DNA of 64,000 bases from positions 1 through 64,000 of the IMG/VR virus record IMGVR_UViG_3300025151_000001. One strand, given 5' to 3'. The first letter of the stretch is position 1. Every line of letters starts with the position of its first letter. The translations under genes were made by a program, and so were the position numbers. The notes beneath the pieces were generated by a model, which was given only the letters and a program-made list of their open reading frames with translations, was not told the origin of the DNA and did not search any database. The stretch comes from a virus. Positions 1-52,313 of the stretch are shown in pieces.

Positions 1-374
1 ACTTTAATTTCAATCGTATCTTTTGGAATTCCAAGTGTTACGAATTCCGCTTTGTATTTCTTTCTAATGTATTCTTGGATTTGTTCTTCACTCATACCAG
101 ACTTTACCAACTTTTCAATCTTAACGTTTATGTATGGGATTGAAATTTCATAATGGCCCCGATTCGGTGAAGGTTGACCTCTAGCATTCGCTTGAGTATC
201 TTCTCGCATTAAATTTTTTAATTTTTGGTCCATATTTTGAATCAAATGTGTATCAAGTTCTCTAAGAGCCCTTTCTTTTTCCATCTTAACGTTTTCACGA
301 CTTTCTCTAGCCATTTGTCTGCCTGCCCTTCGTGTTCCAAAAGGAGCCTTTCTTAGTTCATCTTTCCAACTCAT
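1..374 (-). CDS. Hypothetical protein, 3' end outside the window; N-terminus MSWKDELRK
   Basis: Manual translation from ATG at 374 is open to position 1; AGGTGA Shine-Dalgarno upstream. Absent from the ORF track because it has no stop in the window. Confidence 0.8.
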   Translation of the reverse strand, partial: MSWKDELRKAPFGTRRAGRQMARESRENVKMEKERALRELDTHLIQNMDQKLKNLMREDTQANARGQPSPNRGHYEISIPYINVKIEKLVKSGMSEEQIQEYIRKKYKAEFVTLGIPKDTIEIK

Positions 375-810: not shown

Positions 811-1020
811 GTAACCCTCTCGGATTAGCCTAGTCTTGTCTAGCATATAATGATGTCGCTTGGCTAAGTTTTTGCCCCGAAATAGCGCGTTTAACTCACG
901 AAGTTGACGTTAAATCGTTCAATTTGCAAAGTTAAAATAAAAATAAAATTTGGAACAAAGCCATATGGTTGTAGGGCTTTGTATCTAGAATCCCATAAAT
1001 GCAAATTGTGTGATTCTGGT

Positions 1021-1290
1021 ATGAAGCAAGAAACATCCTGCTATGATTGTGGAACTGAGATGGATATTGAGATGAATGGTCGAATCGTTGATATCGAAGA
1101 CGTGATGATTCTGTGCGCCGATTGCGACCACTACCGCGAAATCCAGAAGGAGAGAAATAAGGCTCAATGGAAGAAGCATCTTCTCGAACTCGGAAAGAAT
1201 GTGGTTGAGTTGTGGGATGCAGCAGGCGAACCTGAAAACGCAGACGTTTTCCTCAAGGCCAACAACCTCACCCGTGAAGATTTGGTTTGA
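1021..1290 (+). CDS. Small Zn-finger protein (CxxC...CxxC)
   Basis: CYDCG and CADCD motifs; start chosen from promoter spacing; followed by a hairpin. Confidence 0.7.
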   Translation: MKQETSCYDCGTEMDIEMNGRIVDIEDVMILCADCDHYREIQKERNKAQWKKHLLELGKNVVELWDAAGEPENADVFLKANNLTREDLV

Positions 1291-1312
1291 CGGCCCAAAA
1301 CAACGCAACTCG

Positions 1313-1360
1313 GTCCCTGCCCTCAATCCTTCGGGATTGGGGGTGGGGTTTTCATTTTTA
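1313..1360 (+). terminator. GC-rich hairpin plus T-run closing cassette 1
   Basis: CCCTGCCCTCAATCC-TTCG-GGATTGGGGGTGGGG followed by TTTTCATTTTT. Confidence 0.7.
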
Positions 1361-1471
1361 TTCAAACCATATGGTTTAGTCTTTGAATTGTGAAACAATA
1401 AACCCTAAACTACCTATCCTGACGAATTCTATCGTCTCCGGGGTGGAGAATAGCCAACAAAGGTGAAAAAC

Positions 1472-1954
1472 ATGAACACAGAAAAGTATGAAATGAATCT
1501 GAATAAGATTCGTGAATGGATGAAGATGAACGATGCGGGTTCATTGGGTGTTGTGCTTGAAGCACAAATCGCCCTTCCCGTTGAAAACGATGATGACCGC
1601 GTTCGGGTTTGGACGGCTATTCGCGCTATTGCGAAGATGCTCCCAAATTCGCCAATTCGCCCCGGTGCCGCTTCCAAGTATAGCCCCGAGGTTCAAGCGA
1701 CTTTGGACTCTATTGCGAATGGTGTCCGAACTGCTGCGCGTAACTACTTCAAGGCGGGTATGCATAATCTTTTGCGAATGCACGGAAAGTCTGGTGGCGG
1801 CCTTTATGCCGATGCTGATGAATTCGGTGATGCAGAAGCAAAGAAGGTCGTTAACGACCTTAAGCGCCGAATGCGCGAAGGTATCTGGGATGGAACCATT
1901 CCGGGTCTTGATACGCAAACCTTCCCCGTTCTGGAGGTGAACGAAGAAGAGTGA
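1472..1954 (+). CDS. Hypothetical protein, paralog family A copy 1
   Basis: GGTGA SD; shares NDAG..VVL.AQ, W.AIRAIAKMLPN..IRPG, HGK.GG.YA.A and G.W.G with 3815-4330. Confidence 0.85.
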   Translation: MNTEKYEMNLNKIREWMKMNDAGSLGVVLEAQIALPVENDDDRVRVWTAIRAIAKMLPNSPIRPGAASKYSPEVQATLDSIANGVRTAARNYFKAGMHNLLRMHGKSGGGLYADADEFGDAEAKKVVNDLKRRMREGIWDGTIPGLDTQTFPVLEVNEEE

Positions 1955-2095
1955 ATCGTGGCGGATTCCACCCCGGGGGCCCCTTTAGCAGATAATGCTA
2001 TTGGGGTTCCCGTTTCACGGGCAAAGGCCGAACCATATGGTATGTTCTTTGGTTACTTGTTCATACCCTAAAACGTCATTATGTAGGGATTTATC

Positions 2096-2332
2096 ATGGT
2101 TTTATGTAACTGTGCAGAGTGTTTGAAAGAATTTTACGCTGAAGGTGCTGACGCTTATACTGATACACATGGCTTGGACCACCATCCAAGGTGTAATCAT
2201 ATTACGCAGAAGAATTTCAGCGTGATTAGCGACTACATTGAAGTTGACTATTATGGGACCGTTGAAAAAGTTATTCTGTGGCAGGGCTATAATTGCACCT
2301 GTGAAGAAGAATACGACAAGGACGAATCCTGA
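2096..2332 (+). CDS. Small Cys/His-rich acidic protein
   Basis: CNCAEC, HHPRC, CTC; fills one cassette. Confidence 0.7.
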   Translation: MVLCNCAECLKEFYAEGADAYTDTHGLDHHPRCNHITQKNFSVISDYIEVDYYGTVEKVILWQGYNCTCEEEYDKDES

Positions 2333-2461
2333 AAAAGCCCAAAAAACCCTGTATTGGGTTTTTCCTCCTCGTTGGGGTTTTTTCCTCAAAGATAGAACCA
2401 TATGGTTGCTATGCTTTGTCGCTTGTAGCAACCCTATCTACTGTAATTGCTGCATTTTACC

Positions 2462-2800
2462 ATGTCTAAGAAACAAATCGAATACATTGTCGAAAACACG
2501 CGCTCGCACTCGTCAACCTCGTTTGAAACACGGTTTAGAAAACTCTTTTCGGAAAGCAGGTCTGATTCTGCGTTCTCGATGGCCCTTGAGAAGAAGACCG
2601 AGGAAGAAATCAGTATGATTGAGAGCGCGATTGTTGCTTATGTGAGTTTAGAAAAAAAACTGAGGGACACTAAGAGGCAGTTGAACAAAGCGAGTGACGA
2701 CTACATGAAACTTCACAATGAAGCGAGGCGAAACAGGAAAACCCTTGATTCGCTCAACTTCATGTTTCATCAACTACACCAAGTAGGCGACGAATACTGA
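2462..2800 (+). CDS. Coiled-coil hypothetical protein
   Basis: Fills one cassette; heptad-like C-terminal half. Confidence 0.7.
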   Translation: MSKKQIEYIVENTRSHSSTSFETRFRKLFSESRSDSAFSMALEKKTEEEISMIESAIVAYVSLEKKLRDTKRQLNKASDDYMKLHNEARRNRKTLDSLNFMFHQLHQVGDEY

Positions 2801-2918
2801 ACAAACCCGCACGGGTGGCCGAACCTCGGGGGTCTGCGGACCTCCGGGGTTCCTTTCGTCAGACCAAAGTGACTCGAACCATATGGTTGCTGACTTTGGA
2901 TTAAACCCCAAATTTATT

Positions 2919-3209
2919 AAAAATGGGGGTGGTGAGCCGGACTGAATACCGACATGAATGAAGCAGTTTAGGTCCGCTTTGACCGTTGCTCTCCTAGTTC
3001 CTTGGTCTAGAAGCCATTCAATCACATTCACCGACGAATCCGCTAAGAAACGCGCCCTTTTGGGGTCTTACCACGGCATAAATCCACAAGTGCGCCACGC
3101 ATTCACGCATCTTCACTATAGAATTCTGGCCCGCTAAAGCCGAATGTGTCCCTTAACCCCGAGCAGGGGTTATTCGGGCATCACCTGTGCCGGTGGCCGC
3201 CGACACAGT
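2919..3209 (-). ncRNA. Candidate structured ncRNA (~290 nt) in an inverted cassette
   Basis: No credible ORF; several helices; stems pair fully (with G-U) only on the minus strand; promoter-like ACCTC ~27 nt upstream; ends in a T-run. Confidence 0.55.
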
Positions 3210-3314
3210 AATATTGCCACAAAAGGATATGTTTGAGGTTATAACAAAGCCGAACCATATGGTATGGCCTTTGAATGTAATATACCCCTATCAAATGGAA
3301 TAGATGTGTTTTAG

Positions 3315-3690
3315 TGGAGCATGGGGGACAATGACCCCACCACCCGGAAACTCAGCATTGACTCGCTGAAGGGATTCCGGTAAAACGTCGCTGACCGCGT
3401 GAAAGTCTGTAACTGAGCAATCACACATTGTTGCTCCCGTAGCATCCTCAATCAATACGGTAAAAATTTGGTGGGGTAGGTGAAGCGTAAGCGAGTATAG
3501 GCGATTTGAACACTTTGGACAGAAGGTCGAAGGCCGATAATCCTCATTGTTAGAAAAGCCAAAAAACGCCTCATAGTGGTCCTGTAAGCCGCAGCCCTAA
3601 TATAATTGTATTGCAATAGAAAAATGAATCATGATTCAATGCTACCTCTGGGGCGGTTCATTCATCAATGGACCTCGGGGTAGTAATTTC
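3315..3690 (+). ncRNA. Candidate large structured ncRNA (~300-370 nt)
   Basis: Nested helices 3334-3342/3469-3477, 3344-3349/3375-3380, 3352-3356/3365-3369, 3415-3420/3431-3436, 3437-3441/3456-3460, 3499-3503/3567-3571; no ORF of 60 aa or more. Confidence 0.6.
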
Positions 3691-3814
3691 ATTCAAAGGC
3701 TACTACCATATGGTTTGTGCTTTGTAAGTGTAACGCAAACCCCATATGTAATTGGTTGAATGCATTTTACTGTCTAAGGGGGACAACCAAAGGACACACA
3801 TCGGAGAGATTAAC

Positions 3815-4330
3815 ATGACCGAAAAAGACGAAAACTATTGGAACGAAAAAACGCAAACGATTGATGCGTGGATGGAACACAACGACGCCGGAGCGATGGC
3901 GGTTGTTCTTAACGCACAGAATGACCTTTTGAAGCAGAATGTTGGAAATCCTACGGAAGCGGACCAGATTTGGGCCGCGATTCGTGCGATTGCCAAGATG
4001 CTTCCAAACACTTTCATTCGCCCCGGACGCCAACCGGGCTTGAGTCCAGAACTTCAAGCATCTGTGGATTCTGTGGCGCATTGTGTCGAAACTGCCTATG
4101 CGGAATTCTATGAGGCCCATTGGGAACTTCTGTCCGCTATCGTCCTTCCTCACGGAAAGACCGGTGGTCACTACGCAAACGCTCAGGATGCGGCTTCATA
4201 CATGAATGGCCGCACCACGCGCATCCTGAAGGAAGCCATGAAGGATGGCCGTTGGGAAGGCAAGTCGGAAGACGGAATGCCTATCGAATTGGCTGCTCCC
4301 CCAATGCCGGAGGTGGCAGAAGAGGAGTGA
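3815..4330 (+). CDS. Hypothetical protein, paralog family A copy 2
   Basis: Clear similarity to 1472-1954; GGAGAG SD. Confidence 0.85.
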   Translation: MTEKDENYWNEKTQTIDAWMEHNDAGAMAVVLNAQNDLLKQNVGNPTEADQIWAAIRAIAKMLPNTFIRPGRQPGLSPELQASVDSVAHCVETAYAEFYEAHWELLSAIVLPHGKTGGHYANAQDAASYMNGRTTRILKEAMKDGRWEGKSEDGMPIELAAPPMPEVAEEE

Positions 4331-4459
4331 ATTGTCTAAGGAAGTCCCCCTTAGGCCCCTTTGTTCGCCTTTGGGCGTTCAAGTGGGGTTAGTGCAAAGC
4401 AAACCATATGGTAGTAACTTGCGGATTAGCGGGCTACCCCGACTAACCCCCCTTTTGGG

Positions 4460-4597
4460 TCAGCAACGCGTTCCTCTACACCACCTTTCCTCATCTGCTC
4501 GCTTTTCACACCCATACATCGAAATCACACCATCACAGGTATAGCACCTCTGAATGCCTTTTCCACAGTTTTCTTGATTACAGCACTTTTTCGCCAT
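4460..4597 (-). CDS. 45-aa Cys-rich microprotein MAKKCCNQENCGKGIQRCYTCDGVISMYGCEKRADEERWCRGTRC
   Basis: Manual translation; 8 Cys; ACCTTAAG box ~27 nt upstream on the minus strand. Confidence 0.65.
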   Translation of the reverse strand: MAKKCCNQENCGKGIQRCYTCDGVISMYGCEKRADEERWCRGTRC

Positions 4598-4734
4598 GTT
4601 TAGACGTTAGGTCACTAATACTTAAGGTTGTTCCTTAATTCCTTAATTACGTCTTTGACTCTAATTAAGACTCAACCATATGGTAGTAGGCTTTGTTTTA
4701 CTACCCCCATGAATAGCGTCAAAAACCGATTAAC

Positions 4735-4929
4735 ATGAAGATGGAGAGGTTCGAATTGGCTATGAAGCACCTTTTGAAAATGCATGAGAAGGTCATTGAT
4801 GATGCTATCCAACACCATGCCGTGAATAAGTCCTTCACAACGTATGCAAGCGTTGAGGCCCTTATCGCTCAAACTAAAGAAGATGCGGCCTTTGTTCTGA
4901 TGCACGGCAATATTGACGAGGAAGAGTGA
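4735..4929 (+). CDS. Small hypothetical protein
   Basis: ORF track; start matches promoter spacing. Confidence 0.7.
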   Translation: MKMERFELAMKHLLKMHEKVIDDAIQHHAVNKSFTTYASVEALIAQTKEDAAFVLMHGNIDEEE

Positions 4930-4933
4930 TAAA

Positions 4934-5170
4934 ATGAAGCAAGAAGAATCCGTTAGATTTGCTGAAGCCTTTGGATATAAACTGTATCAAGATGGCCTTC
5001 TGCCGCCTTTTGAAGAAAAGGGCATCTATGCAGCAATTGAAGCATTCTGTGGAGCGTGCATGGAAAACAACAACCGCTTCGATGAGGTGCTTTTCTTAGA
5101 AAAAGTGCATGAATTCCGTAACAAATTGATTCAAGAAGATTTGGATAATCATTACAGAGAAGAGGAGTGA
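4934..5170 (+). CDS. Small hypothetical protein, paralog family B (FAE.F...AFC.AC...N.RFDE)
   Basis: Similar to 5468-5668 and 11881-12072. Confidence 0.75.
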   Translation: MKQEESVRFAEAFGYKLYQDGLLPPFEEKGIYAAIEAFCGACMENNNRFDEVLFLEKVHEFRNKLIQEDLDNHYREEE

Positions 5171-5291
5171 AAAGTTAAAAACCCGATGACCCACCCTTAG
5201 GGGTGGCGAGGTCTTAAAATCAAAGTAAGACCATATGGTAGCAGGGCTTTGTTTCTGACTACCCTATCAAATGAGTTTGATTAACATTAAC

Positions 5292-5471
5292 ATGGCAACA
5301 GATTGGACACCTACGAATGTGCTTGAAGGATGGGAAGAGGTTTGGGTCACTTTCCACAGCGAAGAATTGAACAAAGATGTGACCATTGAGGTATGCTCCG
5401 TTGAAGACCTCATTTATCGCATCATTGGCGATTCTTCAGAAGTCGCGGCACGAATTGCAGAGGAGGAATGA
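5292..5471 (+). CDS. Small acidic hypothetical protein
   Basis: ORF track; start MATDW chosen from promoter spacing. Confidence 0.7.
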   Translation: MATDWTPTNVLEGWEEVWVTFHSEELNKDVTIEVCSVEDLIYRIIGDSSEVAARIAEEE

Positions 5472-5668
5472 ATATGGGAATGACCAGAAAGCACTTTATC
5501 ATCTTTGCAGAAGAATTTTCTAAGTTGAAGAACCGGATGGAAACGTCTTCCTATGGTTTGGAGCCTTGGACGGTATATTCTGAAATGCTCGTCGCTTTTT
5601 GCAACGCTGCAAGTGAAGTTAACGATCGATTCGACGAAGAACGGTTCATTGAGGCGGTGAATGAATAA
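5468..5668 (+). CDS. Small hypothetical protein, paralog family B (MTRKHF...NDRFDEERF)
   Basis: ATGA overlap with upstream gene; paralog similarity. Confidence 0.75.
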   Translation: MNMGMTRKHFIIFAEEFSKLKNRMETSSYGLEPWTVYSEMLVAFCNAASEVNDRFDEERFIEAVNE

Positions 5669-5808
5669 ATCAATAAGAAAACCAAAAAATAACCCTTCAA
5701 GGGTTGTTTTTCCTTCTATGTGGGGTTTTATTTTTCAAAGTCACATATTACCATATGGTAGTATGCTTTGTTTTCTACCCCATGAATAAAACCAAAAAGA
5801 AGTAAGTG

Positions 5809-5976
5809 ATGAACATCAAGAGGTTTCAAAAACTGAGGCATGAATACTTGGAAAAATATTTGCATTGTTCTCTTTCGTGGGAAATGGAATTCACATTTGA
5901 ACAGTTCCTTCTATTGGAACTTGAGGCCTATGTAGCCCTATTTCATAACCTTAAAGCCGAGGAGGAAGAAGAATGA
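5809..5976 (+). CDS. 55-aa hypothetical protein (MNIKRFQ...KAEEEEE)
   Basis: Manual translation; promoter spacing. Confidence 0.65.
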   Translation: MNIKRFQKLRHEYLEKYLHCSLSWEMEFTFEQFLLLELEAYVALFHNLKAEEEEE

Positions 5977-6140
5977 CCACGAAACAAAACGAACTTCTGA
6001 AAGAGATTAAAATGCTCAAGCGAGCAATCCGAAACATTGGGCATACGCCCGAAACGGAGAAAATCATTCAGGCACATAACCTTCTGGTTGAAATGTGCGT
6101 GGAACAATTTGAAGAGTTGAGGAAGGTGGAGTCAAGATGA
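5973..6140 (+). CDS. 55-aa hypothetical protein (MTTKQNE...KVESR)
   Basis: Manual translation; ATGA coupling and GGAGG upstream. Confidence 0.65.
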   Translation: MTTKQNELLKEIKMLKRAIRNIGHTPETEKIIQAHNLLVEMCVEQFEELRKVESR

Positions 6141-6389
6141 TGGAGAGGTTTAAGGAGAAATAAGACCGATGACCCCGGCCCATTTGGGTCGGGCGAGGTC
6201 TTATCACAAAGACAGACCATATGGTTTGAAACACAGAGAAAGAATCAAAATGGCTTAATCCCTACCCTCTCCCTATTATTGAATAGGTAGAAATAATCAT
6301 CCCCTTGATTTCCACACCATTTGTTAGGGTGCTTTCAATTGGAGATATGAGTATGAGTATAATCATATGGTATATACTATAGTTAAGTA

Positions 6390-45909: not shown

Positions 45910-46248
45910 TCATTCCACCTCAATAACGAAGAAAATTTCTAAAGTTTCTGTTGATGTAAAGGGGCCTACACCATCAAATGATTCTCGTCCAAATAATAAA
46001 GAGCCATCAAAGAATCCTGCTTCACGAATTACTTTGCCGGGGATGGCAGAACCCGCAATACTTAATTTAACTTCGACAACGTTTTCAGTTGATTGGTCGT
46101 TGACTACTGTAACAGTAATTGAACCAATTGGAACATCTAAATCAGTAGCGGCGGGACTTGTTGAGTTTCCACCTAATCCAATCTTACCGCCATCAACATT
46201 ATCTTTAATGTATTTGGCTAATTGAAATCTAAGGTCATCGGTAATCAA
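45910..46248 (-). CDS. Small tail/baseplate protein
   Basis: IG.GG...P...DL..P, IREAGFF pattern. Confidence 0.6.
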   Translation of the reverse strand: MITDDLRFQLAKYIKDNVDGGKIGLGGNSTSPAATDLDVPIGSITVTVVNDQSTENVVEVKLSIAGSAIPGKVIREAGFFDGSLLFGRESFDGVGPFTSTETLEIFFVIEVE

Positions 46249-49200
46249 TATTCCACATCCACTAAATCTGTTTCGGTAATTGTTCCTAATCCACCAAAGG
46301 TTGAGCCAAAACCTAGAGTAATTCCGAAACCCAAGGTCACACCCGAAGACGCTCTCTTCCTAACAAGCAGACGAAGGGGCTTGACCTTAAGTGTTTCTAA
46401 CACATCAAATGTAGAAGTATTTTCATTAAATGCTTGCTCTCGGATAGTGGCGTTGGTTTGTCTATTACTTACAAGTAATTCAGCAAATCTGTCTTCTAAC
46501 TTCTTTGAGAAAAGACCCAACTCTAAGACCATGTTTCCTGTAAGTAAGTGTTTTACTTCAAGAACGTAATATTGATTAAGTGGGATGTTTTCTCTTCTAA
46601 TTTCAACATTGATAATGTCTCCGGGTTTAAGTTGAGAAATACCTTTATGTCCAACTTCTAAAACTAACTTTTTATTTGCTCTAGTGTGTAATAAGAAAAG
46701 TTCTGTTGCCCTATCATCAACATCACTCTGAGAAGCAAGTTCTCTTTCAAACACTTCTAAAGTTTTCTTTCCGTTCTTTTTAATGTCTCTAAGATTCTTT
46801 CTAACAGTTTTGTGTTGTCTTCCAAAAACAATAATTTCGTTGTATTTATCGAAGGTTGTTGATTCGTTCTTAAAATCAAAGATTTGATATTCTCCAAAGT
46901 CTGATAAGACAACATCGGTGTAGTGGGTGTTGTCTCTCTTGGGTTTTACCTTGAATACCCCATCTTCCTCAACTAATCTAAGTTCTTTCTTTTTCGTAAT
47001 ATAGTTAATCGCTGAAAGCAAATCAACCCCTTGGAAATTTGGTGAAGCAAAACGAGGATAAGCCTGAGTTGTTAAGTCAAAGGAAATATCATTTTCTTCT
47101 AACAGGTCATTGATAATTCTTTCAGATTCATGCCCAATAGTTACACCGACTCCAATGTTTGCTCTTTTGAAGTTACCTCTCACTTGATTTGGGACAGTCA
47201 ATGTAAAGACCTCAGAAACAGAAGGAACGCCCAATGTCTTTTTCATTTCAGAGAAAGAGAAGGCAGTTCCTAATTCAGAATCCTTGGAGGTCAAGGAGGT
47301 CTTATATGTAGTAACTCCATCAGAAACACACATTTGGTAGAAACCCTGTGGAACACACGTTTTGATATTTGCAGCAGAGCGATAGACTACATTTTCTTCA
47401 GAAGAAGATTTTCTGTCCAAATCAGCAATAACATACATAGATAAAGCCGCTTCAGAGCCACCTTGATTTACATCTGTGTTATGAACAATGAATGGACCGG
47501 CCTCCTTTTCTTTAACTAGGTATGAAGAAATATTATCATAAGTTCTGTTTCTTCCATTCATTTTTGTATATCTAGATGATAACTTATTCAACTCAATAGT
47601 TTTAGGTGTGAAATCATAAGTGCAAACATGGTTGGGCTGCATAATTCTAAAATAATCATTAGCCAATTGCTTATCTGTGATAATGATATGAGTTAGAGTG
47701 CTATCCGATGTATCAATTTCATGAGACACAACATATGCAATTTTGTCTGGGTTCATTTCGTTGATTGATACTTGGTCATCTTGAAGTGCAGAGTTATCGG
47801 TATAGGCGGTTCCTTCATATCTAATCTCTTCAAATGTTCCCTGTTCTGATACCAAGTAACAACCAGAAAGACCATTGATTAAGTTTAGCCAATAATGTTC
47901 ATCAAAATCAGCAGTTTCAATTTCGTATTTATAGAAATTACCGTCACCTACTTCATTGCTCAATTGAGTTTCTGTAATTCCTGATTCAGCAGTATTAAGT
48001 TTCAGTCTGAATTTCATTCCAATATAAGCACCATCAGAGTCTTCTTCACTATTGGCCGTCTTTTCAAAGTCGTCATATCTGTAAAACTTCTGTCCATTGA
48101 CTAAACCAACCAAATAGAAATTATATAAAGAACTCAGAGCGCCGTTAATTTCTGTTAATCTAGGAGAAACCGTTCCCGGAGTTAAATTTCTAGTTGAGTC
48201 TTCAATGCTAAATCTATCCAAGAATAGAGGTAACATCTCATTTGTTAAGAAGTCATGTTCTGGATTAGATGAAGAACTACATTTCTGATAAATACCTAAT
48301 ACTTGGGAAGTGTTAGCATTGAATGTCGCTCTATGTAAATTGAGGTCTTTTCCTAAATTTGGTGGTAGGAAAATACTAGCATTATTTGTTTGAAGGCTCT
48401 GTAAAGTTCCACTATATTTCGTATTAAAGTAATCAGCATAATTGTCTTTATCAACAACAGCGCCCTTTAACATATGAATATCTGTTCTAAACTCAAATGA
48501 TTCCTTGAGTCCTCTTCCTTCAACTAAGGAATATTTTACTTCAGTCACCTTAAAAAGATTACCTGTATAAAACGCACCACTATTTGTTTTATTAGCAATA
48601 GCCGTTAATGTAATTTCTCCGCCACTCGGAGTTCCTGATACAGTTCCAATTAAATTTCCTTCACTATCACAAACAATATTGCCGTTAGCAAAATTTGTCT
48701 CATTAGACGCAGTAATCTTAAAAGGCGCTGAAGTGGTATAGTCTGAAACACTACTCACTACTGAAGTTGTTTGCGCGAGGTCAGTAAATTGGTATTCAAG
48801 TCTTGGGAGTGTAGCCTTTTTATTAGGTAAGTTCTCGGGGTCAATTTGATTAAAGTGCCAATCATAAACACATTCAGTTAATCTCATTAAACCAAACTGT
48901 TTAAGGTCTGTAACAGAATCTGAACTTGAAATGTTAAAAGTCTCATAATCAGTATCAATGTTTGATTGAACTCTAGATTGTGCTAAACTGTGGTCTTTTG
49001 GCGTTGATGAATTAACTGTGTTCGTATCTTTCTTTAACATGATAGAGTAGTTGGTTATTTCTCTAGTTAATGTAGGATTTAAAACGCTGTCCTTTCTTTT
49101 ACCACTATAAGGTTCAAGGTCAGAATTTACAAACAAGAACATTTTAGCAACTTTGGGGTCAATTTGATATAGAACATCATGGCCCCGGAAAGGACTTACG

Positions 49201-52200
49201 CCTCCGATAACGTCAGCATCTTTATACACAGGTGAAGCAGAACTTCCACTTTTGTGAAATTTAGTATCAAAAAATCTAGAACCGGAAACAGGTTGGAATC
49301 CTTGTGATTCTGTTAATGGATGATTTTCTGTCCCTGAACCTGTTTGTCCAACACCCGTAATATTAGGAAGTGTTTGTAGTCCCGGCCCAAATCTATAGGC
49401 ATCGGCATAATATCTAATCTCTGAAATGATTTCATTATAGTAATCTAAATCATAATCTTCCGACCAACTTGTCTTTTTGGGAGTTTTGTAGTTAACATTT
49501 CCTCTTTCCAAGTTAAAAATTCTATATAGGGGACTACCAAACTTATGAGTATAACTATCAAAATTTGTTGTTGAAAAAGAAAAGGGTGCTTCAAAAAGTA
49601 AATTGGTATTTGCACTAGGGGACTCTTGATATTTTGGATTTAATAGACCAACTACCTTACCTCCGTGCAAATGTGCAGCATTCAAAAATGCTAAAGAATG
49701 TGCTAAGTCATTAGCAGATGTTACTCTTTGAAGATTTCCACCAGAAGATGTTGCTCTTCTATCTAAGAAAATTGTATTAACTCCTGCTCCTGTGGTTGAA
49801 GTATGAATATGCTTTCCAATAAAAACACCGTCAACATAAACAGGTTCTTCGTAGTTATAATAAAATGCTAATGAAGTTGGACTAAATGACCTACTGTCAG
49901 AAATAGAACCCGTAACTCCTAAACTTGAAAAAGTTTTTTCTATTGTGCTTTGGCTGTTTGTGTCCACTCGACCGAGAGAAAGCGGAACATAAGGAGCCAA
50001 TTCAATAGTCGTTTCTGTATCTCCGCGAGAAATATTTAGAATAGAAAAATCAATGAGGCTATTTACTACGTCAAAGGTCTGATTTGTTCCGTCTGTGTTT
50101 TGAAGCCTCGCTTGGAAAAATCTGTCATTTTTCATATTAGAAGGGTGATGAATAGGATAGCCCAAAGAGTTAGCATCATCATCACTTGATGTCCCAACGA
50201 GAGCAGTTCCATCATTACCACTAGCATCTAGTTTTGTTCCTGAATCAAACAATATTCCCTTATCAGCGGAGCCTTCTAATGCTGTAGTCGTTTGAGTAAC
50301 AGTATAATTTGCCGCTAATGCTTTGTTTAAAACATATGACTTCGATAATCTCTTAAATAGAGAAACGCTATTTCCATAACTTCCAAACTTAGCAGTATCA
50401 ACTAATGTTACTCTTACCGAAGAAAAGGTATCAACTACACCAATGTAAGCAAAACTACCATTAGAAAATTTTCCAAATAGTTCATCACCCGGAGAAATAT
50501 CAGTTGTTGTTGAATTGATATCAAAAATTTTAGAATCTCCATTTAAGAAAACTCCTGAAGTTACTACTGTTCTGCTTAAATCTTGAACTGAATTATAAAA
50601 TGACTTAGAAGAATAAATCATATCTTTAGAGAATAACTTATTAGAATTCACAATAGGTGATAATAGTTTTCTTAAATTATTCCTTCCTTCTAATTTAACA
50701 TAAGTTTGACCCATCTCTTTAGAAGTTTCAACTGATTCAACTGCACCGTCAAATCTTTCAACAAAAATTTGATAACTGCCTAAAAGATATTTTAAAGGAT
50801 TAGTGTCATATCCATCCCCAGAAAAACTTAAAGTTAGCATCTCTTTATCCTTGTCGGAACTAGTTACCGAGGCATAGATAAATCTAAAGTTCTTTGTTGT
50901 GAACCTAACAGATAGGTTATAGTCCCTACCTTCAACGATGTTAAACTTAGTTAGAAGCGTCCCATCAGTTGAATTATATGCTCTCCTGTATAATGTCTCT
51001 TGGCCTAAACTCGTTAAAGAAGTTGAATTTGTGAACTCGCCTTCTGTTTCTAATCTACTAAATTCATTAAATTGAATCGTTGTCGAAGTGATTGCTTCAA
51101 CAATTAAAATTCTAGAACCTACCTTAACTTCATCATTAACATTTAAAAAACTAGTTAAATCATAATCACTAATTACTGTATATGTTCTAGAACCTGTATG
51201 AGAATCTAAAGATGCTTTAAGTTCGAACCAATCAAAAAAATCTCCTGTATGAACTAGATGTCTAACTCTTAGTGCATCTTCTTCTGAAACCTTTTTTGTG
51301 AAAATTCTATTGTTATCAACAATACTTACATTAGCAAATCCTGACCTCGAACCTACAGCATCAGTAATTTCTGCTTCAATAACACCCACCGCAGTATTGC
51401 AGTATGTTGGTGAAAAATCATAATGAACGTAGCGAGTTGGTCCGGTTAAATTAATTGTTCCAGAAATGTCGTTATCAACTTGTCTTCTTGCATTATAAAA
51501 AACATCTTCGTAGTCTGTGAAGTCTTCGGTAGGTAATGAATACGAAGACTCTTGGGGAACAGGAGTCCCGGCTACGTCTTTGTTTCTTAAAACGTCGGTT
51601 AATGTAACCTGTAAAGAATATGGACTATAATCAACGACAGCATTTGAGAAATCCTGTTCGACCATAAATGCTGTTTTCAAAGAGTTGACGGTAACAGTTG
51701 AACCACTAGTTACTGAATTGCTTTGAACGAAATATTTTGTGTTATGGTCCAACTCTCCCTTTTTATTTACTTTAGTTTCTTCAATATAGAAAAGAGGCCT
51801 TGAACAAACTAAGTCATTTCTGAGACTATCGCTAATGCCTCCAGAAAAAGCAATAGCATTTGAAGTTAAGAGAGGCCCCTTAAACAACATAAATTTTGTC
51901 CCTTTTGGAATTTCTTTGCCTAACTTTGGAGTAAATTCTAATGAGTCCCCTGCCGCATCATCTGTTAATGATTCAGTAATTCTAGCAAAATGGTGCTGAT
52001 TTGCATCATCTGAATGCAAAAGAATAAACCAATAGTGAGTAGTATTAATACTTAATTGGACCCCATCTCCTGTAAAGGCATTATATTGCTTAACAATATG
52101 ACCGGGCGTTGTTGCTAAATTAGTGTATTCTGTTAAAAGACCTGCGCCACTTGAGATTTCATCAAATGTTAAATTTTCACTATCATCTGAATGAATAATA

Positions 52201-52313
52201 GTAAAATGTTTTTTAGATGAACTAGAAGAAGTATTTGTTTTAATCTTAGGATTCGTTGGACAATTAGTGTTCGTGTCCGTAGTCGAACCTTTATTGAGAA
52301 CAGTTAGAGCCAT
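46245..52313 (-). CDS. Very large (2022 aa) tail tip/baseplate hub protein
   Basis: S/T-rich beta protein; C-terminal NEIIVFG and LKPGDIINV hub-type motifs. Confidence 0.7.
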   Translation of the reverse strand: MALTVLNKGSTTDTNTNCPTNPKIKTNTSSSSSKKHFTIIHSDDSENLTFDEISSGAGLLTEYTNLATTPGHIVKQYNAFTGDGVQLSINTTHYWFILLHSDDANQHHFARITESLTDDAAGDSLEFTPKLGKEIPKGTKFMLFKGPLLTSNAIAFSGGISDSLRNDLVCSRPLFYIEETKVNKKGELDHNTKYFVQSNSVTSGSTVTVNSLKTAFMVEQDFSNAVVDYSPYSLQVTLTDVLRNKDVAGTPVPQESSYSLPTEDFTDYEDVFYNARRQVDNDISGTINLTGPTRYVHYDFSPTYCNTAVGVIEAEITDAVGSRSGFANVSIVDNNRIFTKKVSEEDALRVRHLVHTGDFFDWFELKASLDSHTGSRTYTVISDYDLTSFLNVNDEVKVGSRILIVEAITSTTIQFNEFSRLETEGEFTNSTSLTSLGQETLYRRAYNSTDGTLLTKFNIVEGRDYNLSVRFTTKNFRFIYASVTSSDKDKEMLTLSFSGDGYDTNPLKYLLGSYQIFVERFDGAVESVETSKEMGQTYVKLEGRNNLRKLLSPIVNSNKLFSKDMIYSSKSFYNSVQDLSRTVVTSGVFLNGDSKIFDINSTTTDISPGDELFGKFSNGSFAYIGVVDTFSSVRVTLVDTAKFGSYGNSVSLFKRLSKSYVLNKALAANYTVTQTTTALEGSADKGILFDSGTKLDASGNDGTALVGTSSDDDANSLGYPIHHPSNMKNDRFFQARLQNTDGTNQTFDVVNSLIDFSILNISRGDTETTIELAPYVPLSLGRVDTNSQSTIEKTFSSLGVTGSISDSRSFSPTSLAFYYNYEEPVYVDGVFIGKHIHTSTTGAGVNTIFLDRRATSSGGNLQRVTSANDLAHSLAFLNAAHLHGGKVVGLLNPKYQESPSANTNLLFEAPFSFSTTNFDSYTHKFGSPLYRIFNLERGNVNYKTPKKTSWSEDYDLDYYNEIISEIRYYADAYRFGPGLQTLPNITGVGQTGSGTENHPLTESQGFQPVSGSRFFDTKFHKSGSSASPVYKDADVIGGVSPFRGHDVLYQIDPKVAKMFLFVNSDLEPYSGKRKDSVLNPTLTREITNYSIMLKKDTNTVNSSTPKDHSLAQSRVQSNIDTDYETFNISSSDSVTDLKQFGLMRLTECVYDWHFNQIDPENLPNKKATLPRLEYQFTDLAQTTSVVSSVSDYTTSAPFKITASNETNFANGNIVCDSEGNLIGTVSGTPSGGEITLTAIANKTNSGAFYTGNLFKVTEVKYSLVEGRGLKESFEFRTDIHMLKGAVVDKDNYADYFNTKYSGTLQSLQTNNASIFLPPNLGKDLNLHRATFNANTSQVLGIYQKCSSSSNPEHDFLTNEMLPLFLDRFSIEDSTRNLTPGTVSPRLTEINGALSSLYNFYLVGLVNGQKFYRYDDFEKTANSEEDSDGAYIGMKFRLKLNTAESGITETQLSNEVGDGNFYKYEIETADFDEHYWLNLINGLSGCYLVSEQGTFEEIRYEGTAYTDNSALQDDQVSINEMNPDKIAYVVSHEIDTSDSTLTHIIITDKQLANDYFRIMQPNHVCTYDFTPKTIELNKLSSRYTKMNGRNRTYDNISSYLVKEKEAGPFIVHNTDVNQGGSEAALSMYVIADLDRKSSSEENVVYRSAANIKTCVPQGFYQMCVSDGVTTYKTSLTSKDSELGTAFSFSEMKKTLGVPSVSEVFTLTVPNQVRGNFKRANIGVGVTIGHESERIINDLLEENDISFDLTTQAYPRFASPNFQGVDLLSAINYITKKKELRLVEEDGVFKVKPKRDNTHYTDVVLSDFGEYQIFDFKNESTTFDKYNEIIVFGRQHKTVRKNLRDIKKNGKKTLEVFERELASQSDVDDRATELFLLHTRANKKLVLEVGHKGISQLKPGDIINVEIRRENIPLNQYYVLEVKHLLTGNMVLELGLFSKKLEDRFAELLVSNRQTNATIREQAFNENTSTFDVLETLKVKPLRLLVRKRASSGVTLGFGITLGFGSTFGGLGTITETDLVDVEY

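Follow-up and report, generated by a model that had tools for sequence, protein, structure and literature searches.

What does a unit of viral DNA encode that has its own promoter box, stands in a row of small protein genes and holds only short open reading frames? Cassette 6 raises this question; it occupies positions 3315–3690 of the window, the whole 64,000-nucleotide stretch of DNA analyzed here. The original prediction proposed a large viral non-coding RNA, carried as a cassette in the same way as protein genes. Our analysis favors this reading: with a probability of about 0.73, the plus strand of 3314–3684 is a functional stand-alone structured RNA gene of ~370 nt that represents an orphan family.

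Genome setting

The virus record is complete, with 92,240 bp and direct terminal repeats, and the window covers its first 64 kb. Among the genes of the window are those for a UvrD-type helicase, a B-family DNA polymerase (PolB), a ribonucleotide reductase (RNR) and a GroEL-type chaperonin, in addition to tRNA-Leu, tRNA-Lys and tRNA-Arg, and ~60 related IMG/VR contigs have the same layout. The gene set matches that published for group B magroviruses, which have been assigned to marine group II archaea (PMC5434244). As RNR, GroEL, PolB, tRNA-Leu/Arg and the 92-kb size with terminal repeats all fit, the virus is probably a head-tailed, group-B-like magrovirus that infects marine archaea. Magroviruses rank with the most abundant surface-ocean viruses, and we know of no magrovirus and no magrovirus host in culture. 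In the magrovirus literature covered by text search, promoters and non-coding RNAs are not mentioned.

An assignment to a Bacteroidetes or crAss-like phage, with a promoter for a virion RNA polymerase, had also been considered, prompted by a TTTG motif and a 2022-aa ORF. This assignment was dropped because the ORF has no sequence match in Pfam or PDB, and because the gene content fits group B magroviruses. The ORF itself (46245–52313, minus strand) is part of the late block on the minus strand, close to tail-like genes.

Cassettes joined by palindromes

Short units line up in the first ~6.3 kb of the window, each set off from the next by an invariant palindrome, ACCATATGGT, that is flanked by CAAAG and CTTTG arms. 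In the window, the 9-mer CCATATGGT was matched 24 times, counting both strands, where 0.25 matches would be expected; of the 13 CCATATGG sites, 12 fall within 961–6217. An ACCC(C)-TA/AA box comes after most palindrome sites, and in six protein cassettes the ATG lies 26–27 nt after the last C of the ACCC box. Box and spacing together suggest an archaeal TATA-type promoter that would drive leaderless mRNAs. Ten proteins from the units of this row have no family in Pfam. Cassette 6 and its joints comprise the following features:

3245–3273: palindromic joint (CAAAG, 5 nt, CCATATGG, 6 nt, CTTTG), common to the divergently oriented cassette 5
3284–3295, plus strand: promoter box ACCCCTATCAAA, invariant in the four homologous copies, predicted to be archaeal BRE/TATA-like
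3314–3684, plus strand: predicted RNA body of ~371 nt that begins at the predicted start (3315 ± 1) and closes with the terminal hairpin
3321–3383, plus strand: 20-codon ORF, with ATG, length and TAA intact in all four copies
3694–3724: next palindromic joint and promoter arm of cassette 7 (gene 3815–4330)

From CCATATGG through the promoter box, the upstream joint is 100% identical in the four copies, and the joint motif is retained in ~60 related virus loci. The transcript had been predicted to start near 3316, and the box-to-ATG distance in the six protein cassettes agrees with this, placing the RNA start at 3315 ± 1. The 3′ end may lie as far as ~3691 or beyond.

Three homologues of cassette 6 were found on marine metagenome contigs (L084, L085 and L086), by a metagenome scan in which the minus-strand open frame served purely as a probe. 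They are 89–94% identical across 383 columns that cover the whole unit. In the same genomes, the cassette 7 protein gene is less conserved than cassette 6, with an identity of 77–84%.

The genomic neighbors of cassette 6 vary. Immediately downstream of it, the window and L086 have cassette 7, and L084 has a different sequence. In L084 and L086 it comes right after cassette 4, with cassette 5 missing. In L085 the unit is inverted and has one palindrome in common with cassette 7 as a divergent pair, where the cassette-7 arm is fused to the promoter end of the inverted cassette 6, giving a clean hybrid joint. In L004, the nearest helicase relative (helicase 84% identical), the cassette 5 homologue directly joins the cassette 7 homologue and cassette 6 is absent, as it is from most relatives. 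Comparison of these genomes indicates that cassette 6 moves, flips and drops out as one unit at the palindromes. With its own conserved promoter box, two ACCATATGGT-type joints and its gain, loss and inversion at these joints, cassette 6 belongs to the palindrome-joined cassettes and is carried as the protein genes are, as had been proposed.

Among these close relatives (window 961–6217; L004 and L084–L086), promoter-to-hairpin units in general differ in presence, order and orientation, and in every case the change falls at the ACCATATGGT palindrome.

Only four copies of cassette 6 are known, including that of the window. Searches of 80 helicase-linked related virus loci (blastn, nhmmer and tblastn) retrieved no copy, and covariance models of domains 1 and 2 (described below) retrieved only the four known copies from 1.5 Mb of related virus DNA, with one copy in the virus’s own genome. 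No copy beyond the record itself was found in IMG/VR with degenerate peptide patterns and three exact 20–25-mers, none in one genome per prokaryote species (GTDB), and no match in a phage GenBank collection of 50,697 records. An exact 20-mer match in a Saprospiraceae MAG (L087, GTDB) was rejected; its flanks are unrelated, and ~1 chance match is expected.

Predicted architecture of the RNA

The predicted RNA consists of two closing helices, two multi-helix domains and a 3′ tail with three hairpins. Its parts, all on the plus strand, are as follows:

3314–3317/3589–3592 (H1) and 3322–3329/3579–3586 (H2), plus strand: two closing helices, with the 5′ strand at 3314–3329
3334–3477, plus strand: domain 1, closed by the 9-bp helix H3 (3334–3342/3469–3477)
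3344–3348/3376–3380, plus strand: H4 of domain 1, with a compensatory change from C-G to U-A
3351–3356/3365–3371, plus strand: H5 of domain 1
3390–3395/3405–3410, plus strand: H6 of domain 1, with a compensatory change from A-U to G-C; this helix was chosen after the variation was seen
3415–3421/3430–3436, plus strand: H7 of domain 1, with compensatory changes from U-G to A-U and U-A
3437–3441/3456–3460, plus strand: H8 of domain 1, with an invariant 14-nt loop
3478–3571, plus strand: domain 2, closed by H9, AGGUG/CGCCU (3478–3482/3567–3571)
3485–3492, plus strand: hairpin of domain 2 with a GUAA tetraloop
3500–3512/3548–3560, plus strand: H11 of domain 2, with five one-sided changes; pairing is kept save for one G-G cell in L085
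3517–3519/3541–3543, plus strand: H12 of domain 2
3525–3528/3532–3535, plus strand: H13 of domain 2, with two compensatory pairs (U-G to G-C and C-G to U-A)
3605–3617 and 3625–3638, plus strand: two small invariant hairpins of the 3′ tail, whose lack of variation neither supports nor contradicts pairing
3641–3684, plus strand: terminal hairpin whose stem has two parts, with UAAUUUC after it; it may form the 3′ end or act as a terminator

The 9-bp long-range helix of the original prediction corresponds to H3, whose strands ACCCCACCA (3334–3342) and TGGTGGGGT (3469–3477) pair in both the minimum-energy fold and the consensus fold of the four sequences. It encloses four hairpins (3344–3380, which is composite, 3390–3410, 3415–3436 and 3437–3460), where at least three had been expected. 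The second domain is also present, but with another closing helix than the AGGCG/CGCCU originally put forward: in the computed folds, CGCCU (3567–3571) pairs with AGGUG (3478–3482), and AGGCG (3499–3503) is an alternative partner whose GGC pairs with GCC at 3558–3560. The terminal hairpin of the prediction appears in the minimum-energy fold at 3641–3684. It has two one-sided changes, both compatible with pairing, and its loop accepts indels of 1 and 3 nt; termination here is inferred from a hairpin with a weak T-run.

No covariation was seen in the long-range helices on which the overall shape depends (H1, H2, H3 and H9). The predicted H1/H2 closure has a single one-sided change (U-G to U-A), and H3 has one C-A mismatch in L085. 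When the fold was computed with the flanks, CCUCA alternatively paired with UGRGG, which fits the H3-breaking change of L085. In the tail, the hairpin at 3625–3638 is a perfect 14-nt palindrome (UGAAU CAUG AUUCA), and dimerization through it is a speculation. The loop of H5, UGACU (3359–3363), is complementary to GGUCG of H13 (3525–3529) in all four copies, including after two-sided changes. This complementarity could be a tertiary or alternative pairing and is taken as a lead only, given that compatible column pairs of this kind number 31 among 1176. The heptamer AUCCUCA, which occurs at 3444–3450 and 3540–3546, was discounted as evidence, ~4 repeated 7-mers being expected by chance in 380 nt. 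A search for internal repeats or iterons in cassette 6 found none.

Conservation of the predicted structure

The stability of the fold is not above that of shuffled sequence: the folding energy of the plus strand is −104.7 kcal/mol, against −101.0 ± 5.5 kcal/mol for dinucleotide shuffles (z = −0.67), and 27 of 100 shuffles have an equal or lower folding energy. The corresponding z of the minus strand is +0.68. Two findings had been named that would jointly count against the predicted RNA, namely a fold no better than shuffled controls and the absence of conserved structure in homologues. The former was indeed obtained, whereas conserved structure was found when the four sequences were checked for covariation.

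RNAalifold on the four trimmed sequences gave 99.3% paired cells and reproduced the architecture of the original prediction. Four column pairs are changed on both sides (34:70, 112:121, 218:224 and 219:223), as compared to at most one when the partners are slid by 1–3 columns. Exchanging one invariant hairpin for the helix 3390–3395/3405–3410 adds a fifth two-sided pair, a choice made after seeing the data. When the alignment columns were shuffled within conservation classes, none of 90 shuffles reached the observed consensus energy (−97.4 vs −75.7 ± 5.5) or the observed ratio of consensus to single-sequence energy (0.93 vs 0.76 ± 0.04). The minus strand gave no signal in this test (z = −0.3; ratio 0.79 vs 0.74, reached by 12 of 90 shuffles), nor did the coding cassette 7 (0.73 vs 0.71, reached by 24 of 60). 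Restricted to the same three genomes as the cassette 7 control, cassette 6 still had a ratio of 0.93 vs 0.79 (0/60).

The least biased of the three structure tests scored the fold of the window sequence alone on the three homologues, against a null in which whole columns were permuted among positions sharing the window base, so that phylogeny was kept. Only 9 of 37 changed pair-cells break the fold (24%), against 68 ± 8% under the null, and seven cells are compensatory, against 0.8 expected; neither value was reached in 2000 permutations. The minus strand gave no signal (74% broken vs 66% expected), and cassette 7 had no effect on either strand. Altogether, these comparisons indicate that the secondary structure is conserved, and specifically on the plus strand. 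The covariation comes from four close sequences and amounts to ~5–6 independent events in four short hairpins (H4, H6, H7 and H13); most helices never vary among the four copies. The fold is thus kept in the three homologues by compensatory and wobble-compatible changes, without a coding signal, in line with the viral non-coding RNA that had been proposed.

Comparison with known structured RNAs

The Rfam 15 models searched included GOLLD, ROOL, pRNA, RNase P, SRP, small ribozymes and riboswitches. The scan of the whole window at gathering scores returned only the three tRNAs, and at E ≤ 10 nothing was found on the plus strand of cassette 6 in searches of 2800–3800 and 3300–3705. The ribozyme considered in the original prediction thus found no support in Rfam, where no other family matches cassette 6 either. 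The manA model (RF01745; gathering threshold 55.2 bits) has no match at E ≤ 10 on either strand of 3300–3705.

The adjacent cassette 5 (2926–3205, minus strand) is also poor in ORFs and matches the manA model over its full length, with 43.7 bits and E = 9.6e-10, a score below the gathering threshold of 55.2. Its copy in L004 (5304–5590) is 86.5% identical, has the opposite orientation relative to the helicase, and carries its own promoter box and a T-run hairpin. By comparison with this copy, cassette 5 of the window is read leftwards from the palindrome at 3255, which would make the latter a divergent promoter joint.

A cis-regulatory role was first proposed for the manA RNA motif (RF01745; Weinberg et al. 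2010; PMC2864571), and the class has since been reported to build RNA-only cages (bioRxiv 10.64898/2026.07.01.735769). Cassette 6 resembles manA (RF01745, PMC2864571) as a multi-helix RNA without an assigned function that is found almost only in marine metagenomes and viruses, and it adjoins the manA-like cassette 5 in the same promoter-to-hairpin format. However, it is about twice the length of the manA model and differs in helix layout, in addition to having no manA match at E ≤ 10. The two cassettes also occur separately: L084 and L086 have cassette 6 without the manA-like cassette, and L004 has the manA-like cassette without cassette 6.

GOLLD and ROOL are large “ornate” many-helix, stand-alone non-coding RNAs of phages and prophages, accessory and patchily distributed. 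Cassette 6 is likewise large, many-helix, stand-alone, carried by a virus as an accessory and patchy, whereas it is shorter (~370 nt), has a presumed archaeal host, is known in four copies and matches no Rfam family. The pRNA of phage phi29 is an early structured RNA encoded at the left end of a linear genome of a head-tailed virus, where it acts in trans within a particle; it is essential, and its virus group conserves it. Cassette 6 is also a virus-encoded structured RNA, but has no Rfam match. Because it is missing from most relatives, unlike an essential part, it cannot be a core part of the packaging machinery.

In packaging, not in the RNA itself, cassette 6 resembles the PeSL cassettes of T4-type phages, in which small accessory units, each with its promoter and stem-loop, are reshuffled, acquired and dropped at a repeated regulatory element (PMC2839356; Arbiol et al. 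2010). In both cases, units are exchanged between close relatives at a repeated element. Instead of a sigma-70 promoter, however, the repeat of cassette 6 is the ACCATATGGT palindrome with CAAAG/CTTTG arms plus an archaeal-type box; moreover, magrovirus units are also inverted, and the cargo of cassette 6 is an RNA rather than an ORF. Altogether, cassette 6 probably represents a new orphan RNA family of a general kind already known, that of virus-borne structured RNAs.

Alternative explanations

Several other readings of cassette 6 were weighed against a structured RNA gene, among which protein coding bears on the short ORFs. Plus-strand ORFs wholly inside the unit indeed have only 20–25 codons; the single 20-codon ORF of the original prediction is joined by ORFs of 21 and 25 codons. 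Others overlap the unit, namely a plus-strand 42-codon ORF (3631–3759) that runs into the next joint and a minus-strand stop-free frame of 101 codons. The variable sites of cassette 6 are distributed as 18/13/18 over positions modulo 3 (p = 0.59), as compared to 33/22/81 in the cassette 7 gene of the same genomes, which has a strong codon periodicity, and six single-base indel columns break every longer frame. The unit might be the mRNA of a micropeptide encoded by the 20-codon ORF, with the folded rest as a stabilizing or regulatory 3′ region; this ORF is intact in the four copies and starts 5–7 nt past the predicted start, amid neighboring genes that appear leaderless. However, its ATG is off the fixed 26–27-nt position of the leaderless genes, and its nine variable columns alter the amino acid at seven positions, as compared to one synonymous change; nor is the ORF more conserved than the rest of the unit. 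The ORF is also buried in helices H2–H5, the changes at codons 8–9 and 20 being the H4 compensatory pair, and the conserved structure of the other ~300 nt would have no explanation. A micropeptide is therefore very unlikely, and we judge that the ORF does not give a functional product. A protein encoded in the minus-strand frame (3596–3294) would fit the stop-free runs of 101, 118, 83 and 112 codons in the four copies, and the homologues were retrieved with that frame. Yet the reading frame switches between genomes at single-base indels, so that genomes with 90% identity would have only half of the “protein” in common, and codon periodicity is absent. There is no ATG start (the nearest starts are TTG, giving 54 codons) and no promoter box on that side, where the candidate ACCCCGAGG is without the A/T-rich part, and no protein relative was found in related loci or IMG/VR. 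Such a protein was rejected as not conserved and is exceedingly improbable. The lack of periodicity, the frame-breaking indels, the switching of the minus-strand frame and the 7:1 ratio of amino-acid to synonymous changes together indicate that cassette 6 is non-coding.

A non-coding unit could still act in cis, as a 5′ leader or riboswitch for the gene at 3815–4330, or at the DNA level as an origin or recombination substrate. Its place immediately before cassette 7 in the window and L086, and the cis-regulatory role first proposed for the related manA class (PMC2864571), would be in agreement with a leader. However, the joint and promoter box of cassette 7 itself lie between the two units, the unit of L085 points away from cassette 7, another sequence follows in L084, and L004 has the cassette 7 homologue without cassette 6; the unit is thus not a 5′ UTR in a fixed orientation to a downstream gene. 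Against a DNA element, the reliance on G-U pairs and the restriction of the signal to one strand favor RNA over double- or single-stranded DNA, and neither iterons nor internal repeats were found. We consider a cis element highly improbable. Cassette 6 might also be neutral spacer DNA or what is left of a lost gene, in which case its structural conservation would be a sampling accident among four close genomes. The folding energy, no better than that of shuffles, would suit this explanation, as would the existence of four copies only, none of them distant, in which most helices never vary. A spacer would hardly be more conserved than the adjacent protein gene in the same genomes, however, nor retain its promoter box perfectly; besides, permutations that keep the phylogeny never reach the observed break rate or compensatory count (0/2000), and neither the minus strand nor the coding control has the signal. 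We thus consider a spacer or remnant unlikely.

Proposed role of the RNA

The structured RNA would be transcribed from its own archaeal-type promoter ACCCCTATCAAA, ~27 nt upstream of 3315, like the neighboring small accessory genes. Its first ~16 nt would pair with 3579–3592 and thereby close a two-domain, multi-helix core, which would be followed by a 3′ tail of small hairpins and the terminal hairpin. As the neighbors differ from genome to genome, a cis role is unlikely and the RNA probably acts in trans. It might do so as a protein-binding decoy, a scaffold or a self-associating particle, used for host takeover or counter-defense in particular host strains. A strain-specific role of this kind would explain its optional presence among relatives, and cassette 6 sits among optional, fast-swapping early accessory genes. 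A decoy, scaffold or self-assembly role remains tentative, the odds being clearly below even. The GUAA tetraloop, the invariant 14-nt loop of H8 and the 14-nt palindromic hairpin are compatible with tertiary or intermolecular contacts, without proving them; one GNRA tetraloop was the sole known motif in the RNA of cassette 6, for which neither a target nor a partner protein was found.

To our knowledge, large structured RNAs encoded by archaeal viruses are almost unheard of. A second, unrelated structured RNA beside a manA-like one suggests that folded RNAs are exchangeable accessory tools of magroviruses. More speculatively, and in our view rather doubtfully, cassette 6 could be the first of a new class of large folded early RNAs of archaeal viruses that work without a dedicated viral protein, as a self-assembling particle or as a trap for host defense or translation factors, and that are traded like protein genes. 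The RNA is short enough for in vitro synthesis, by which its fold, self-assembly and partners could be tested without virus culture.

Other units of the cassette row

The genes at 1472–1954 and 3815–4330, the latter being that of cassette 7, are paralogous. They encode proteins of ~160–171 aa, share a 58-nt stretch of 78% identity and belong to no Pfam or PHROG family. Both lie 66–71 nt after the promoter box, unlike their leaderless neighbors. The protein of 3815–4330 has only five other related clusters in the protein database, and nothing was found when it was used as an IMG/VR query. The unit at 4404–4675 has neither a CTTTG arm nor, after its palindrome, a plus-strand ORF and may be another inverted or non-coding cassette. 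In L084 (positions 1–112, reverse strand), a degenerate palindrome, ACCATTATGT, lies downstream of the RNA and is followed by a small Cys-rich ORF in place of cassette 7.
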